Notes under the pieces: generated by a model
Seen by the model: the letters and a program-made list of their open reading frames with translations, nothing else
Told to the model about the DNA's origin: nothing
Database searches by the model: none
Shown: one piece after another, positions 3,528 through 11,461 of the stretch
How positions within the stretch are numbered: the first letter of the stretch is position 1
How the letters are laid out: each line of letters opens with the position of its first letter
Translations under genes and position numbers: made by a program
IMG/VR virus record: IMGVR_UViG_643348545_000014
Reading direction: 5' to 3' (one strand)
DNA: 12,008 nucleotides
Origin: a virus
Taxonomy: Duplodnaviria > Heunggongvirae > Uroviricota > Caudoviricetes

Positions 3528-3827
3528 ATGAGAACATATTTATCTGGCTTGACTGCCAGCGGTTATGCACACCCCAAAATTATCCCCGGCGCTATTTATC
3601 TGGATAAGAACGGTAACAGAGTAACGGTAAAAGAACTGATGTTTGACCGTGTTTATTTTATCCGTGATGGATATTCATTTCTTAGTTCGCTGAACGTGGA
3701 GATCTTTATTTGCAGATTCCGGCGGGAAATCCCGACTTCCAGAAATAACCATGTGTCACGTGTGGATGTGGATAAAAAACTACAGGAACTGAAAAACATG
3801 ATTGCCGCGTGGAGAGAGCAGAAATGA
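3528..3827 (+). CDS. Hypothetical protein (99 aa)
   Basis: GGGGA RBS 9 nt upstream; its stop overlaps the primase ATG (ATGA), indicating translational coupling. Confidence 0.5.
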   Translation: MRTYLSGLTASGYAHPKIIPGAIYLDKNGNRVTVKELMFDRVYFIRDGYSFLSSLNVEIFICRFRREIPTSRNNHVSRVDVDKKLQELKNMIAAWREQK

Positions 3828-5965
3828 AAAAAGCGCCAAATTTAAAACACCAGCCGCGTGACAAAATGACGGAAGTCATCATTTTTGCGGGTAGTGATGC
3901 CTGGGCACATGCGAAACAGTGGCAGGAACAGGACGGGCGACTGGCTGGCGATAACGTGCCTCCTGTCTGGCTTGGAGAGCAACAACTTGCCGAACTGGAT
4001 AAGCTGCAAATTGTGCCGGAAGGCCGAAAATCAGTACGCATATTCAGGGCCGGACATCTTGAGCCAGTAATGATCAAGGCGATTGGTCAGAAGCTGGCGG
4101 CGGCAGGCGTACAGGATGCAAATTTTTACCCTGATGGAATGCACGGTCAGGAGGTGGAGAACTGGCGCGAATATCTGGCCCGTGAGCGGCAGAATCTTTC
4201 TGATGGTCTGGTTATTGAGTTTCCGGTAAAGAAAAAAGATACCGGAAGCCATAGCGATGACGAATTAAAGCCACGCGTTGAAAGTCGCGCCGATGGTGTT
4301 TTCTGGGTAACGCCCAAAGTGGATAAGCAGTCAGGCGAAATTATCCGGCCTGAGACGTGGTTATGTTCTCCGCTTGAACTACTGGGAACGGGGACGATCG
4401 GTAAAGAGCATTACCGCGTCATGCGCTGGAAAAAATTAGCAAATCATGAAGTCATCACAATGGCGATCCCGTGTGGTGGCATTGGCGACCGTGACGGCTG
4501 GCGGTTGCTTAAAGATCACGGGCTGAACGTGACAACAAACGGCAAATACAGGGCTATCCTGGCTGACTGGATGCAGTTAAGCGGAAGCCATGAGGAATGG
4601 CAGTTAAGCACAACAACGGGCTGGCATTTTGACGCGTACATCATGCCGGACGGTTCAATCATTGGTGATTCTGAAAAACCGATCCTGTTTACCGGAAAAA
4701 GTGCCGCTATTAATGGCTATTCGGTTGCGGGTACGGCGGAGGGCTGGCGCGACAGCGTGGCGCGGCTGGCTGGTGGCAATCCGTCCATGATGCTGGGTAT
4801 TGCCACGTCACTGGCAGCACCGTTGATTGGCCTTGTTGGTGCTGACGGCTTCGGGGTACATCTTTTCGAACAGTCATCGGCAGGGAAAACCACCACGCAG
4901 AACATCGCATCAAGTTTATGGGGAGAGCCAGACTCACAACGGCTGACCTGGTACGGCACAGCGTTAGGTATCGCTAACGAGGCAGAGTCGCACAACGACG
5001 GGCTGTTACCCTTGGATGAAATAGGCCAGGCCGGAAACGCGCGGGAGGTGTCCACGTCAGCCTATACGTTGTTTAACGGTTCCGGGAAATTACAGGGGGC
5101 GAAGGACGGCGGCAACCGGGAGATAAAACACTGGCGCACGGTGGCAATCAGCACCGGAGAAATGGACGTTGAGACATTCCTCAAAACGGAGGGGATAAAA
5201 GTCAAAGCGGGGCAGCTTGTCCGCCTGCTTAACGTTCCGATGGAAAAAGCCACGCACTTTCACGAATACAGCACCGGAAAGGCGCACGCAGACGCGTTAA
5301 AGGATGCCTGGACAGAAAATCACGGGGCAGCGGGTCGTGAGTGGGTTAAATGGCTGGCAGGCCACCAGCAGGAGGCAAAGGATACGGTAAGGGAATGCCG
5401 CGAACGGTGGCGCAACCTGATACCGGAGAGCTACGGCGAGCAGGTCCACCGCGTGGGTGAGCGTTTCGCCATACTGGAGGCCGCGCTTGTGCTTTCCGGT
5501 CATGTAACTGGCTGGGCCGCGCAGGAATGCCGGGACGCAATACAGCATAACTTTAATGCCTGGGTGAAGGAGTTCGGCACGGGTAACAGGGAATTTAAAC
5601 AGATGGTTGAACAGGCTGAGGCGTTTTTGTCGTCGTTCGGGTTCAGTCGATACCTTCCTTACCCAAACAGTGATGAACGTGATTTACCGATTAAAGACCT
5701 TGCCGGATACAGAAAGGGGAGTATCAGAAATGAAGATGATGAGTTCCGTTTTTACACGTTTCCTCATGTGTTTGAGGGGGAGATCGCACAGGGATTTAAC
5801 CCGTCCCACTTTGCCCGCGCGTTGAGTGCTGCAGGAATGCTGGAAGCGGGTAACGATCGCCGTTACAAGAAAAAGGCGCTCGGCAAAATTGGGGGGAAGC
5901 AGCATGTTTTTTACGTACTGATGTTCCAGCCTGAGGCAGAAGATTACCCCCCCTGTGTGAGGTGA
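3824..5965 (+). CDS. Satellite replication protein: primase/replicase with a P-loop NTPase-like segment (Pri-Rep-like)
   Basis: About 713 aa from ATG 3824 (GGAGAG RBS; the ORF track begins at GTG 3809). Contains a P-loop-like SSAGKTT. Large size, position after alpA, and the iteron array immediately downstream all fit a replication initiator. Family assignment is by layout and motif only. Confidence 0.75.
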   Translation: MKKAPNLKHQPRDKMTEVIIFAGSDAWAHAKQWQEQDGRLAGDNVPPVWLGEQQLAELDKLQIVPEGRKSVRIFRAGHLEPVMIKAIGQKLAAAGVQDANFYPDGMHGQEVENWREYLARERQNLSDGLVIEFPVKKKDTGSHSDDELKPRVESRADGVFWVTPKVDKQSGEIIRPETWLCSPLELLGTGTIGKEHYRVMRWKKLANHEVITMAIPCGGIGDRDGWRLLKDHGLNVTTNGKYRAILADWMQLSGSHEEWQLSTTTGWHFDAYIMPDGSIIGDSEKPILFTGKSAAINGYSVAGTAEGWRDSVARLAGGNPSMMLGIATSLAAPLIGLVGADGFGVHLFEQSSAGKTTTQNIASSLWGEPDSQRLTWYGTALGIANEAESHNDGLLPLDEIGQAGNAREVSTSAYTLFNGSGKLQGAKDGGNREIKHWRTVAISTGEMDVETFLKTEGIKVKAGQLVRLLNVPMEKATHFHEYSTGKAHADALKDAWTENHGAAGREWVKWLAGHQQEAKDTVRECRERWRNLIPESYGEQVHRVGERFAILEAALVLSGHVTGWAAQECRDAIQHNFNAWVKEFGTGNREFKQMVEQAEAFLSSFGFSRYLPYPNSDERDLPIKDLAGYRKGSIRNEDDEFRFYTFPHVFEGEIAQGFNPSHFARALSAAGMLEAGNDRRYKKKALGKIGGKQHVFYVLMFQPEAEDYPPCVR

Positions 5966-6563: not shown

Positions 6564-6986
6564 ATGACAGCACAGATAGCGGCTTACGGGCGGCTGGTGG
6601 CTGACCCGCAGTTAAAGACCACCAGCAAGGGTACACAAATGACGATGGCTAGTATGGCGGTCCCCCTTCCGTGCAGCCAGGCAGATGACGGAACGGCGAC
6701 GATGTGGTTATCCGTCCTGGCGTTTGGCAGACAGGCCGACGCACTGGCAAAACACCACAAAGGCGAACTGGTGAGCGTGGCGGGTAACATGCAGGTAAGC
6801 CAGTGGACAGGCCAGAACGGCGAAACGCGGCAGGGCTGGCAGGTTATCGCAGACAGCGTAATCAGTGCGAGAACGGCGCGACCGGGCGGCAAAAAAGGCC
6901 AGCAGGGGCAGGCTACTGACGCACTGAACAGGGCAAAACAACAGGCGGGTAACGATGATCCGTACGGGGATAACATACCGTTTTAA
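6564..6986 (+). CDS. ssb: Single-stranded DNA-binding protein (SSB-like, OB fold)
   Basis: WLSVLAFGRQADALAKHHKGELVSVAGNMQVSQWTGQNGETRQGWQVIADSV aligns with the E. coli SSB core [50 protein letters not shown] (recalled). The C-terminal tail DDPYGDNIPF resembles the SSB DDDIPF tail. Confidence 0.75.
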   Translation: MTAQIAAYGRLVADPQLKTTSKGTQMTMASMAVPLPCSQADDGTATMWLSVLAFGRQADALAKHHKGELVSVAGNMQVSQWTGQNGETRQGWQVIADSVISARTARPGGKKGQQGQATDALNRAKQQAGNDDPYGDNIPF

Positions 6987-7001
6987 GCGACGAGTGACAG
7001 A

Positions 7002-7024
7002 AGCCGGAGCAATCCGGCTTTTTT
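7002..7024 (+). terminator. Rho-independent terminator after ssb
   Basis: Stem AGCCGGA / TCCGGCT, loop GCAA, then T6. Nearly identical to the terminator at 9443-9467. Confidence 0.6.
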
Positions 7025-7075
7025 ACGGGTTCTCCTGGCGGGGTGGGCCTGAACACGGGGCGGGAGGCGCGGAAA
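7021..7075 (+). other. Degenerate cos-like sequence (cosQ-like ACGGGTTCTCC, cosN-like ACGGGGCGGGAGGCGCGG)
   Basis: Direct-repeat relationship with the intact cos region at 9444-9515: the first ~30 nt are near identical, then sequence diverges. Confidence 0.4.
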
Positions 7076-7203
7076 AAAGCGCATTTTTGTGATTTTATCG
7101 TCATCATCATCATGAGCGTAATTTATTGTTTTTAATTGTTTTGATGCAAAAAAGATGATGGTTGTGGTTAATTTTTGTTCGACATCTTTGCAGGCAGATA
7201 AAA

Positions 7204-7240
7204 AAGCCCGATAAGGTCAGAGGTGGCTTATCGGGCTTTT
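7204..7240 (+). terminator. Hairpin terminator (bidirectional-looking)
   Basis: 12-bp perfect stem AAGCCCGATAAG / CTTATCGGGCTT with an 11-nt loop, flanked by an A-run upstream and a T-run downstream. Confidence 0.5.
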
Positions 7241-7317
7241 GCATATGAGGTTTTTTGGTGCACTGACACACATGATCGGGATAATCATTTCATAATTTGC
7301 AACACAACTCAATATCA

Positions 7318-7373
7318 TTGCACAAAATGCAATCATGATTATAATCATAACTGGATGAACATCCAGTTATGAT
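7318..7373 (+). promoter_or_regulatory. Head-operon promoter candidate (TTGCAC-16 bp-TATAAT) overlapped by two perfect palindromes (operator candidates)
   Basis: -35 TTGCAC at 7318-7323 and -10 TATAAT at 7340-7345. 14-bp palindrome ATGATTATAATCAT at 7335-7348; 30-bp palindrome ATCATAACTGGATG-AA-CATCCAGTTATGAT at 7344-7373, followed by T6. Confidence 0.5.
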
Positions 7374-7401
7374 TTTTTAAGTCAAAGAGGAATTTCTTAC
7401 T

Positions 7402-7608
7402 ATGGCTGAAGAGAAAAAAGGCGGTATTTCGGTGTACATAAGCCCCGACATCGTGAAGGCGCTCAAGGAACGCCACCAGCAGAACGTAAAAGCAGGCATT
7501 GCGGCAGGACTTGATCCGCTGGCGATGGTTGAGCCGTCAACAGGCTGGCAGGTACGCGCCTATTTACGCGCGGCGCTGGGTATGAATCAGGTTCACGGGG
7601 GTGAATAA
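7402..7608 (+). CDS. Hypothetical small protein (68 aa) translationally coupled to the major capsid gene
   Basis: AAGAGG RBS; its stop overlaps the capsid ATG (TAATG). Function unknown. Confidence 0.5.
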   Translation: MAEEKKGGISVYISPDIVKALKERHQQNVKAGIAAGLDPLAMVEPSTGWQVRAYLRAALGMNQVHGGE

Positions 7609-8663
7609 TGACAGTAAAAGCAATATCACTTAACACTAACCAGCTTTTTGCGTACCTGAATCGCGAGGATATTGCGGAATTTAAATTCAGTCCGCTGTTT
7701 ACCGCGCTGTTTTTCCCGAACGTGGCGACATTCAACACACAGGACATCATGTTAGATAACCTGGATATTGAAGAAGTCACTATGTCGGCGTTTTGTTCGC
7801 CTATGGTGGGTAGCCAGGTTCAGCGCGATAAAGGGTACGAAACAAGCATTATTCGCCCTGGCTACATGAAGCCAAAACACGAAATCGATCCATTAAAAAC
7901 AATAATGCGCATGGCTGGAGAAGATCCAGCACAGCTTAACGACCCTACCTACCGCCGTATGCGCCTGATTACTGGCAACATGCGCCGCCAGATAAACGCC
8001 ATTAAAGCGCGCGTGGAATGGCTGGCGGTAAATGCGGTAACGACCGGAAAAAACATCATTGAGGGCGAAGGCATAGAGCGCTATGAAATCGACTGGAAGA
8101 TACCGGAAAAAAACATCATAGAGCAGGCCGACGGTAAAAAATGGTCAGAGCAGGACAAAGACATACACGACCCAATCTATGACATTGAGCTATACGCAGA
8201 TCAGGCAGGTTGCCCCGCAAACGTCATGATTATGGGCGTTGATGTATGGCGCATGTTACGCAGCTTTAAAAAATTCCGTGAACTGTACGATCTCTCCCGT
8301 GGTTCAGAATCCGCCGCAGAGCTGGCATGTAAAAACCTGGGCGAAGTGGTGAGCTTTAAAGGCTATCTTGGTGATCTGGCCCTTATCGTCTATTCCGGCA
8401 AATACACTGACAGCGACGGCACAGAAAAATATTTCCTTGAGCCTGATTTGCTGGTCCTGGGCAACACCAACAATAAAGGGCTGGTGGCCTATGGTGCGAT
8501 TATGGAACAGGAAGCGGTAAGAACGGGCGCAACGCAAAACATGTTTTACCCGAAAAACTGGATTGAGGACGGCGATCCGGCGATTGAGTACGTGCAGACG
8601 CACAGCGCACCGCAGCCGGTTCCGGCAGATATTCGCAAATTTGTTACCGTCAAAATTGGTTAA
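7608..8663 (+). CDS. Major capsid protein, lambda gpE-like
   Basis: 351 aa. Multiple conserved blocks against lambda gpE (recalled): FKFSPLFTALFF vs FKFDPLFLRLFF; PGYMKPKHEIDP vs PGYVKPKHEVNP; EDPAQLNDPTYRRMR vs EDPQNLADPAYRRRR; GYLGDLALIVYSGKY vs GMYGDVAIVVYSGQY; YPKNWIEDGDPA vs YPKNWVTTGDPA. Confidence 0.9.
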   Translation: MTVKAISLNTNQLFAYLNREDIAEFKFSPLFTALFFPNVATFNTQDIMLDNLDIEEVTMSAFCSPMVGSQVQRDKGYETSIIRPGYMKPKHEIDPLKTIMRMAGEDPAQLNDPTYRRMRLITGNMRRQINAIKARVEWLAVNAVTTGKNIIEGEGIERYEIDWKIPEKNIIEQADGKKWSEQDKDIHDPIYDIELYADQAGCPANVMIMGVDVWRMLRSFKKFRELYDLSRGSESAAELACKNLGEVVSFKGYLGDLALIVYSGKYTDSDGTEKYFLEPDLLVLGNTNNKGLVAYGAIMEQEAVRTGATQNMFYPKNWIEDGDPAIEYVQTHSAPQPVPADIRKFVTVKIG

Positions 8664-8675
8664 CGGGGGGATTCT

Positions 8676-9011
8676 ATGGACACTCCATACATTGAGTTAT
8701 TTGCAGGCAGTCAGCAGGTATCCACGACGCTGGTACATTTTGCCGCTGATGCTGGCGTTATTCAGGAATTTACCCCGCTGATGCTGGCGGACAATGGCGA
8801 GTTTAAGCCGTGGGATGGTCAGGAATCTGGCAAGGCTGTTTATCTGACTTCGTACCCCGTGGACACGTCAAAGCAGAAATCAGCACAGTGTTACAAGACG
8901 GGGATATTTAATATCGCCGCCGTAAACTGGCCTGAGAGCGCCGACACTGACGCGAAAAAATGCGCCGCCTTTGCGGGTTCTGGCGTATCCGTTCAGCCGC
9001 TGGCGCGATAA
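8676..9011 (+). CDS. Head decoration protein, lambda gpD-like
   Basis: 111 aa. Matches to lambda gpD (recalled): TPLMLAD vs TPLMLD, WDG, YKTGIF vs YKSGTF, WPESADTDAKKCAAFAGSGVSV vs [28 protein letters not shown] RBS. Confidence 0.8.
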   Translation: MDTPYIELFAGSQQVSTTLVHFAADAGVIQEFTPLMLADNGEFKPWDGQESGKAVYLTSYPVDTSKQKSAQCYKTGIFNIAAVNWPESADTDAKKCAAFAGSGVSVQPLAR

Positions 9012-9023
9012 GCAGGGGAAACG

Positions 9024-9437
9024 ATGGCAACGAATGAAAGCATCATGGCGCTACCGCTGGCGAGTAAATTTAAAGCAGAAGCGCGGGCAATGGCTGACAG
9101 AGGTTTATCAACCTACGAGGCCGTATATCAACTCAACAAACTGGAAGAACAGGACAAGCCGCGCGCTGATGCGATTATGGCGCTTCATGAACATAACGAC
9201 TATCAGCCGCTGTTACGTGCAATGGCAAACGTGCCATGTATTAGCGTCGATAATGCTCGTGAAATCCTGAACATGACCATAGAGCAGGAGCGCCCAAAGG
9301 TTGCACCAGAGCTTACCGCAGCCTTTGAAAACTTTATGGACATGCACAGCCCGCAAGCCGTATCAGCTGGCATGGCGTACGATGGCAGAAACCAGGGCGA
9401 TGACGGCGACATCGATCGCATACTGAAAACCATCTGA
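9024..9437 (+). CDS. Hypothetical protein (137 aa), last gene of the head operon, immediately upstream of cos
   Basis: AGGGGA RBS; followed by a terminator and cos. No family recognised; its position is analogous to lambda FI. Confidence 0.55.
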   Translation: MATNESIMALPLASKFKAEARAMADRGLSTYEAVYQLNKLEEQDKPRADAIMALHEHNDYQPLLRAMANVPCISVDNAREILNMTIEQERPKVAPELTAAFENFMDMHSPQAVSAGMAYDGRNQGDDGDIDRILKTI

Positions 9438-9442
9438 GACAA

Positions 9443-9467
9443 GGCCGGAGAAATCCGGCTTTTTTTT
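9443..9467 (+). terminator. Rho-independent terminator
   Basis: Stem GCCGGA / TCCGGC, loop GAAA, then T8. Confidence 0.6.
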
Positions 9468-10599: not shown

Positions 10600-10930
10600 T
10601 GCTGAATAATCATTATGATTACGCAGATGATTAAGGAATGACCGAAGGCGGAAATTCGCCTGTGGTTAATGGGGGAGTTGCAGATCTGCAACTCGACCAT
10701 GAAACTACGGAAACTACCCGTAGTTTGGGTAGTAAGAGTAACACCCAGATTTTGGGGCTTACTCGTGATACCCAAATTTGGGGTATCGGTGGCAACCATA
10801 ACGACTTTCGTTACGGTTGATGCTTTTACCCCATTGGTGGAGGCTGGGCGGCCTGCTGTGGGCTTTTCCACCATTGGTGGAAAGGTGCAGATCTGGATCA
10901 TCATTACGGTGATCAAGGGTATGTAAAACC
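10600..10930. repeat. Palindrome- and repeat-dense region with no confident CDS (candidate regulatory DNA or structured RNA)
   Basis: TGCAGATCTGCA palindrome (10680-10691); interleaved inverted repeats AACTAC/GTAGTT and ACTACCC/GGGTAGT (10699-10729); paired CCCA(G/A)ATTTGGGG elements (about 10746-10786); CCATTGGTGG twice (10831-10840, 10872-10881). Short ORFs overlap in three frames. Confidence 0.4.
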
Positions 10931-10939
10931 CACCAGCCT

Positions 10940-11190
10940 GATTAACAGTTAACCGGAAAAAAAATCCGGCATGGGGGGGAGTGGTTAGCCACGAACAACG
11001 AATAAGCTGGACACCGCGCCCCCTCTCACGCAGAGAAAAAATTACCGTTTCGTAGTAGTTAACATGTTAACTGCCTGATGAAGCGTTGTTGTTGATTTTT
11101 TCTTTATGATTCATCTGGTTGCGTGCAAAAAATGTTAACTACCTTTTTGGTAAAAATGTTAACAGGGCAGCGGTTAACATTAACCAGGCG
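10940..11190. promoter_or_regulatory. Cluster of ATGTTAAC / GTTAAC motifs including a 16-bp perfect palindrome (candidate operator array)
   Basis: AGTTAACATGTTAACT at 11057-11072; ATGTTAAC at 11132-11139 and 11156-11163; inverted GTTAACAT at 11173-11180; GTTAAC at 10948-10953 and 10441-10446. Confidence 0.35.
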
Positions 11191-11432
11191 TAAATCCCGA
11201 TATGGTGATCCCCATATCGGGGAACATCCACCAGCTTAAAAACGAATGAGCGAAAAAAATCCAGGTAGAATTATGGAAGTCGCTAGGGCAATCGCCGTTT
11301 AAATTGTGCATTTTTTCAGCAAATTATTTTAGTTATACGTTTGGTTATACGGTTTAAAAGCTGAATCGATAATATTGATTAAAATCATACTGTTACACGC
11401 TCAATTAAACTACTCTCGTGAAAAATCCCAAG

Positions 11433-11461
11433 AAAACCAACCTATTGCGGTTGGTTTTTTT
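11433..11461 (+). terminator. Rho-independent terminator (bidirectional-looking)
   Basis: 10-bp perfect stem AAAACCAACC / GGTTGGTTTT, loop TATTGC, then T7. Confidence 0.6.

Follow-up and report, generated by a model that had tools for sequence, protein, structure and literature searches.

What switches on the capsid genes of a phage satellite, and why does their promoter lie among overlapping palindromes? Both questions are raised by the 12,008-nt stretch of DNA analysed here in full (IMG/VR virus record IMGVR_UViG_643348545_000014; hereafter the window), in which an earlier note had described a promoter and two palindromes immediately upstream of a head operon. On balance we favour the interpretation that the region 7318–7378 is the sigma-70 promoter of a four-gene capsid operon and is repressed by the host protein LexA at 7349–7368. 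The predicted operator indicates that DNA damage probably turns on the genes of the capsid operon.

Island identity and the capsid operon

Gene content and order identify the window as a Gram-negative PICI of the EcCICFT073 type, a satellite of E. coli phages. The attributes by which such islands are recognised were all found, namely the order int – alpA – pri/rep – ori – morphogenesis/redirection genes, a single orientation, a size of about 10–15 kb and no lysis or tail genes. The features of the island that bear on the capsid operon are as follows.

1–1242, same orientation as the other island genes: tyrosine integrase
1739–1945: AlpA-like regulator
Encoded in the window, same orientation: Ash and DUF4222 proteins
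3809–5965: DUF927 primase/replicase
6564–6986: SSB
7203–7240, + strand: G+C-rich terminator hairpin closing the replication/SSB module (−23.4 kcal/mol, z = −5.3)
7402–9437, + strand: capsid operon, four genes
7402–7608, + strand: first ORF of the operon, 68 aa, c1498 homologue
7608–8663, + strand: lambda gpE-like major capsid protein, c1499 homologue (operon Pfam hits PF03864 and PF02924; PHROG)
8676–9011, + strand: gpD-like decoration protein, c1500 homologue (operon Pfam hits PF03864 and PF02924; PHROG)
9024–9437, + strand: 137-aa protein, c1501 homologue (PHROG)
9441–9462, + strand: terminator at the end of the capsid operon, ahead of the Rpp/TerS-like gene (9 pairs, 5 of them G-C, then T8)

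The gene assignments across 7402–9437 agree with the CFT073 annotation, and the prototype island EcCICFT073 has the organisation of the window, with the same palindromes, −10 element and SOS box upstream of c1498–c1501 and a −35 element that reads TTGCTC. The 500 bp surrounding the promoter were found in 617 of 5426 complete E. coli genomes, which puts the frequency of EcCICFT073-type PICIs at about 11%. A phage origin of the regulatory region was rejected on the basis of zero matches in 50,697 phage records; plasmid records gave two matches only. The last gene of the operon (9024–9437) aligns with profiles of head maturation proteases over their C-terminal part (phrog_53, positions 494–567). 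Analogy with lambda C/Nu3 suggests that its 137-aa product is scaffold-like, in which case the operon could encode capsid, decoration and scaffold functions.

Elsewhere on the island, a cluster of GTTAAC-containing repeats (GTTAACATGTTAAC, ATGTTAAC, AAATGTTAACAG, GGTTAACATTAACC) lies at 11058–11190, downstream of the Rpp-like gene, and inverted repeats occur at 11196–11221 and 11433–11458; a role for them as packaging (cos-region) or att-proximal sites is possible. A PICI of a more distant lineage (about 55% capsid identity; L092:773-12891) has inserted into a lambdoid prophage, within its major capsid gene, a helper-embedded configuration that has been described previously (PMC10111431).

Published RNA-seq of CFT073 shows that the four operon genes respond together to a shift from 23 to 37 °C, rising 2- to 5-fold (log2 fold changes of 2.24 for c1498, 2.05 for c1499, 1.45 for c1500 and 1.17 for c1501), while the flanking genes ssb (0.24) and c1503 (rpp; 0.33) and the SOS gene sulA are unchanged (PMC12890032 supplement). 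This joint change, combined with the flanking terminators, points to a transcription unit starting in the 7240–7401 gap. Because sulA stays flat, the response indicates SOS-independent thermoregulation, and since the operon is detectably expressed and rises with temperature under these conditions, LexA cannot be its sole control. An SOS RNA-seq data set from O157:H7 (PMC5931665) was uninformative here, as the Sakai element by phoQ is a capsid-forming PICI of another type.

Predicted promoter and palindromes

The gap contains the following elements.

7317–7333: dyad ATTGCA-N5-TGCAAT over the −35 region, candidate operator
7318–7323, + strand: predicted −35 element TTGCAC
7335–7348: perfect 14-bp palindrome ATGATTATAATCAT, enclosing the −10 element
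7340–7345, + strand: predicted −10 element TATAAT (6/6), 16-bp spacer from the −35 element
7343–7374, + strand: large palindrome, 32 bp, with 15-bp arms and an AA centre
7349–7368: predicted LexA (SOS) box AACTGGATGAACATCCAGTT, core of the large palindrome, fitting CTG-N10-CAG with a heterology index (HI) of 6.98
7373–7378, + strand: T6 run, terminator-like tail
7386–7391, + strand: Shine-Dalgarno sequence AGAGGA of the first ORF, invariant in the alignment of upstream variants

The arrangement TTGCAC-16 bp-TATAAT upstream of the head operon, the first ORF of which starts at 7402, is as the earlier note described it. Its characterisation as near-consensus holds for the −10 element, which is perfect, but not for TTGCAC, which matches the consensus TTGACA at only 3/6 positions and was for this reason missed by a consensus promoter scan. 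Across 46 variants only TTGC of the −35 element is conserved (TTGCAA in Salmonella and in the P0022 type), while TATAAT is unchanged in 45 and reads TGTAAT in one. On both strands of the window it is the sole TATAAT with a TTG 16–18 bp upstream.

Both reported palindromes are present. The 14-bp palindrome encloses the −10 element exactly as proposed; the 30-bp palindrome (14-bp arms, 2-bp centre) corresponds to 7344–7373, is followed by the T6 run and extends by one further pair to 7343–7374. The two differ in how far they exceed expectation. The window holds three perfect 14-bp palindromes against 0.84 expected (300 dinucleotide shuffles), so that the small palindrome alone is statistically unremarkable, and part of it follows from T+TATAA, which already reads as a palindrome. 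The large palindrome is far beyond chance: a shuffled window should contain 0.007 inverted repeats with arms of 12 bp or longer. Sites for sigma-54, CRP/FNR, Fur, ArgR and IHF were judged by eye and set aside because spacing or key bases were mismatched.

A predicted LexA box within the large palindrome

The core of the large palindrome, AACTGGATGAACATCCAGTT, is itself a 20-bp imperfect palindrome of the form CTG-N10-CAG with an A/T-rich centre, and is the best-scoring LexA site of the window. Measured with a matrix built from only 18 E. coli LexA boxes (PMC3009722 Table 4), its HI of 6.98 falls at the middle of the leave-one-out range of those same 18 boxes (0.6–12.8, median 6.9), where recA scores 7.4, cho 7.9, ruvA 8.5 and uvrB 9.1. 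Sites of this quality are expected about 0.0025 times per shuffled window (2000 dinucleotide shuffles). Among 20-mers of local base composition with nine palindromic pairs the probability of such a score is 2.6e-4, which argues that palindromy does not account for the likeness to a LexA box.

The box begins 3 bp past the predicted −10 element and 34 bp before the start codon, and thereby spans about −3 to +17 relative to the predicted transcription start. This is a typical position for repression by LexA. The earlier note had proposed tight control of the head promoter by a dimeric repressor encoded by the island or its helper; the overlapping operator is retained in our interpretation, but its source is revised, as the operator is a predicted box for host LexA.

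A second LexA box, AGCTGTACAGAAAACCAGTA (HI 7.66), lies at 1241–1260, at the integrase stop codon (3′ end of int), and none of 2000 shuffled windows contained two sites with an HI of 7.67 or less. Downstream of this second box are a TATAAT (1290–1295), a conserved ORF of about 80 aa (1320/1328–1571) and a terminator (1579–1602). The ORF product has no family match and carries the motifs ...EFWSTYDPED...GGRPKKW. A homologous arrangement at the end of int is found in L089 with a stronger box (AACTGTACAAAAAAACAGTA, HI 4.25), and the ORF, lying between int and alpA, may be an SOS-induced accessory gene. In islands with a different type of int–alpA spacer (L001:2725-2744, L002:2456-2475, L003:2170-2189) a LexA-like sequence, TACTGGTTTTTTATACACTA or AGCTGGTTTTTTATACATTA, has a good left half and a right half-site of CAC or CAT instead of CAG. 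Expression of alpA has been reported in published work as not SOS-induced.

Conservation across related and distant lineages

Related loci were drawn from IMG/VR and from contigs encoding capsid homologues, yielding 83 loci with 45 distinct upstream variants over 130 aligned bp, or 85 loci with the window and CFT073 included. A capsid-protein scan of species-representative genomes found nothing, a profile scan of the same genomes gave only four distant loci, and a scan with the short pattern ATTTCATRATTTGCA returned mostly unrelated matches, among which filtering left only one extra locus, a boxless one of the P0022 type.

The box is kept in 84 of the 85 loci (HI 5.2–9.2). Its variable positions (1, 2, 9–11, 15 and 20) also vary among bona fide boxes, while CTGGAT and the right half-site CAG are invariant; position 15, just before CAG, is C or A. 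In the variant reading ATACAG the hairpin is weaker (−11.8 kcal/mol) and the HI is better (5.95), having moved towards the consensus. One locus from IMG/VR (L079:2675-2804) has a 1-nt insertion at the box centre (GAACAATCC), which keeps the hairpin and breaks the LexA spacing; either a sequencing error or a naturally occurring dead operator may account for it.

More distant lineages separate the box from the palindrome around it. Salmonella L088 (68% capsid identity) retains TTGCAA-16-TATAAT and the outer arms, with a box GACTGGATGAAAATCCAGTA of HI 6.69. In L213 (65%) the promoter and small palindrome are still present, and its box (TGCTGGATGTTTATCCAGTT, HI 4.79) lies about 14 nt further downstream without the AATCAT/ATGATT outer arms. 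In Lelliottia L215 (57%) a box of different sequence (CACTGTTTTTTCATACAGTT, HI 5.8) occupies an analogous place, with the first ORF about 45 nt further downstream. The recurring feature is thus a LexA-type box near the start of the capsid operon and not the 32-bp palindrome. The earlier note had asked whether the palindromes are conserved in related islands: they are present in the prototype CFT073, but the outer arms are missing in L213 and the box differs in L215. Upstream of the capsid operon no box was found in P0022-type E. coli (63%), Edwardsiella L212 (63%), L214 (62%) or the lineages of about 55% capsid identity. Judged by these predicted boxes, SOS control of PICI capsid operons is frequent and not universal, and the existence of boxless lineages implies that it is dispensable for the capsid module.

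Hairpin, T-run and possible termination

Read as RNA, 7343–7374 folds at −17.3 kcal/mol (z = −7.2), with 14 bp in the stem, 4 nt in the loop and U6 directly behind, and the promoter/terminator scan lists it as terminator-like on the strength of its 14 pairs and T-run. This raises the alternative that the large palindrome serves solely as an intrinsic (Rho-independent) terminator or insulator against read-through from the replication module and that its resemblance to a LexA box is coincidental. Several properties of the alignment fit such a function. Across the 46 variants 96% of cells are paired in the large palindrome, the T-run numbers 5–7 T in every variant, and at 7349/7350 the replacement of A by G yields G.U pairs, compatible with pairing in RNA but not with the DNA palindrome. 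Two stem pairs change on both sides, L045 restores a perfect stem through GG..CC, and the L079 insertion leaves the hairpin intact while breaking the LexA spacing; with sequences 94% identical, such covariation is weak evidence.

We nonetheless regard a terminator-only function as improbable, given that it leaves the quality of the box within the palindrome (P = 2.6e-4), the second LexA box on the island and the boxes of L213 and L215, which lack the long hairpin, to coincidence. Only 4 of the 14 stem pairs are G-C, the outer stem is mismatched in 18 of 45 variants (pair 7348/7369 is U-A in 19, C-G in 3, G-C in 2, U-G in 3 and a mismatch in 18), free energies range from −9.4 to −21.8 kcal/mol, and the P0022 type has the T-run and no hairpin. 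Furthermore, RNA from the predicted start (about 7352) contains a stem of only 5–6 bp that folds no better than shuffles (z = −0.14), so that any terminator function must act on transcripts entering from upstream. There, 100 bp before the large palindrome, lies the far stronger terminator at 7203–7240, which is conserved in L001–L003 and CFT073 and, having an A-run before it and a T-run after it, may act in both directions. The roadblock that the earlier note had placed between the replication and head modules therefore survives in part: the hairpin and its U6 have the form of one, but it is restricted to this lineage and preceded by a stronger terminator. In this lineage the large hairpin and T-run may serve a secondary role in terminating read-through, and the extended palindrome may be a lineage-specific decoration of the box to which termination was possibly added.

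A further alternative would make the hairpin conditional, either as an attenuator/antiterminator switch, in which AATCAT (7343–48) pairs with ATGATT at 7335–40 or with ATGATT at 7369–74, or as part of a Q-type late promoter, constitutive and with a terminator directly behind it that is read through only with the helper Q protein. The three segments are indeed mutually complementary and change together in some variants (CTGATT/AATCAG/CTGATT in L042), and lambdoid phages act as helpers for this PICI family (PMC6092414). Both forms are rejected as very improbable on account of the predicted start at about 7352, which lies inside the left arm, such that promoter-derived RNA would lack segments 1 and 2; as noted, that RNA folds no better than shuffles. 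In addition, the 1:2 hairpin would have a loop of 2–4 nt and only A-U-rich pairs, a leader peptide is absent, the 2:3 hairpin prevails in the ensemble computed for the long transcript, and Rfam returned no family at gathering score over 6900–7700.

Small palindrome, TTGCA motifs and a possible further regulator

Two other elements at the promoter leave room for a regulator besides LexA. The inner 12 bp of the small palindrome, TGATTATAATCA, are invariant in the variant alignment, while at its outer pair 18 variants have A-T, 11 have C-G and 16 have no pairing. The motif ATGATT-N2-AATCAT is kept in two of three boxless lineages of the same architecture (the P0022 type and L212, not L214) and is present in L089/L090 and L212, lineages without an SOS box. 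This combination of invariance and persistence makes a second regulator possible.

The dyad ATTGCA-N5-TGCAAT over the −35 region is present in every lineage sharing the regulatory region, including Salmonella, P0022-type and L213 lineages, and is doubled in Edwardsiella L212; 98% of its cells are paired, with zero covariation. Lineages of about 55% capsid identity have instead three phased direct TTGCA(C/T) repeats upstream of an extended −10 element. TTGCA/TGCAA motifs were observed upstream of capsid operons at 7297–7333 of the window and in L084–L087, L091 and L212, and, as dyads or as three phased direct repeats, they occur in all PICI lineages examined except L214. Their recurrence suggests a common DNA-binding regulator. 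The same half-sites flank GATC in a perfect 20-bp palindrome, GAGTTGCAGATCTGCAACTC, at 10675–10694.

These observations allow an alternative in which the promoter is governed by a dimeric regulator encoded by the island or the helper phage, acting chiefly on ATGATT-N2-AATCAT and/or ATTGCA-N5-TGCAAT. The invariant inner palindrome, the persistence of both elements where the box is lacking, the doubled dyad of L212, the phased repeats of the 55% lineages and the temperature response without SOS induction are all in its favour. As the chief control we nevertheless consider it unlikely: the small palindrome arises in part from T+TATAAT and is not rare by chance, the dyad shows no covariation, and a candidate protein was not found. 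The first ORF of the operon gave zero Pfam hits even at E ≤ 10 and zero PDB sequence hits, and its AlphaFold model (two helices, pLDDT 73.6) had no significant Foldseek match, leaving a role as a ribbon-helix-helix autoregulator unsupported. Such a regulator would moreover leave the LexA-grade core unexplained, and it is best seen as an additional layer. Taken together, the small palindrome, the TTGCA motifs and the SOS-independent temperature response point to at least one more regulator alongside LexA.

Proposed mechanism

For the favoured interpretation, repression of the capsid promoter by host LexA, the sequence features, the quality of the box, its rarity by chance and its conservation are computed results, and the operon boundaries come from published RNA-seq; where transcription begins, that LexA binds there, that SOS induces the operon and that the hairpin terminates we infer. 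In the undamaged cell a host LexA dimer on 7349–7368 would block initiation or promoter escape. DNA damage would activate RecA, LexA would cleave itself and the capsid operon would be derepressed, coincident with the induction of SOS-inducible lambdoid helper prophages. With the dyad of the box extended by the AATCAT/ATGATT arms and followed by the T-run, transcripts arriving from upstream would fold into the 14-bp hairpin with U6, which probably adds insulation from the replication module.

A bolder version of this scheme is conceivable though doubtful. It holds that the 32-bp palindrome is read twice, as a LexA operator in DNA and, in RNA, as a terminator of read-through from the AlpA-driven module, which would make expression of the capsid genes SOS-only, convergent with operon I of the SaPIs. 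A factor acting at the TTGCA dyad would then provide a third input, e.g. temperature.

Previous work describes induction of Gram-negative PICIs as AlpA- and helper-dependent and SOS-independent, and packaging as redirected through Rpp (PMC6092414, PMC6739421, PMC10111431). For the capsid and decoration genes c1499 and c1500, assays of transfer and of interference revealed no phenotype (PMC6092414). From the conserved SOS box on the capsid promoter one would expect a second input, controlled by the host and open to direct test in the prototype island; the box also suggests a condition under which a function of the capsid genes might be sought, namely DNA damage in the presence of a helper prophage. 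The box may explain when these enigmatic genes are used. Our coverage of the literature, which was incomplete, yielded no published description of this promoter or its LexA box, and none of the papers covered contains the site sequence.

Comparison with known systems

Canonical SOS promoters of E. coli, such as those of sulA, lexA and the colicin genes, have a LexA box just downstream of or overlapping the −10 element. The island promoter shares with them a 20-bp CTG-N10-CAG box with an HI in the verified range, placed so as to straddle the transcription start of a sigma-70 promoter whose −10 element is strong. It differs in that its box lies inside a 32-bp palindrome with a T-run, is accompanied by two flanking dyads and is carried on a mobile satellite, outside the core regulon.

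With the Rho-independent terminators found between phage modules the locus shares a long stem, a 4-nt loop, a U6 tail and a position between modules. Unlike them, its stem is A+T-rich, overlaps the downstream −10 element, is redundant with the terminator at 7203–7240 and is missing in some lineages that keep the box. The lambda PR′-qut-tR′ region offers a second partial parallel, having a strong −10 element closely followed by a terminator-like hairpin and a shared dependence on a lambdoid helper, but the island hairpin overlaps the −10 element and start, with the promoter RNA lacking the left arm. No Q-binding or pause element was identified at the capsid promoter, and we do not count it as a lambda-type Q-dependent late promoter.

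The closest counterpart is operon I of the SaPIs, the packaging and capsid-remodelling operon of the S. aureus islands, which is controlled by LexA according to Ubeda et al. (2007) as cited in PMC6739421. The likeness lies in a morphogenesis module that a satellite has brought under the SOS repressor of its host, and that is derepressed upon induction of an SOS-inducible helper prophage, an arrangement that for the present island is predicted. SaPIs and Gram-negative PICIs also both have a separate helper-sensing switch for excision and replication, Stl in the former and AlpA in the latter. The details differ: the SaPI box is the Gram-positive GAAC-N4-GTTC whereas that of the island is the Gram-negative CTG-N10-CAG, the operon I genes terS, cpm, ppi and pti are unrelated to the gpE-like, gpD-like and scaffold-like genes of the island, and control of the PICI operon is predicted from sequence only and is patchy among PICI lineages. 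If our interpretation is correct, satellites of Gram-positive and Gram-negative hosts have converged on LexA control of their morphogenesis modules.
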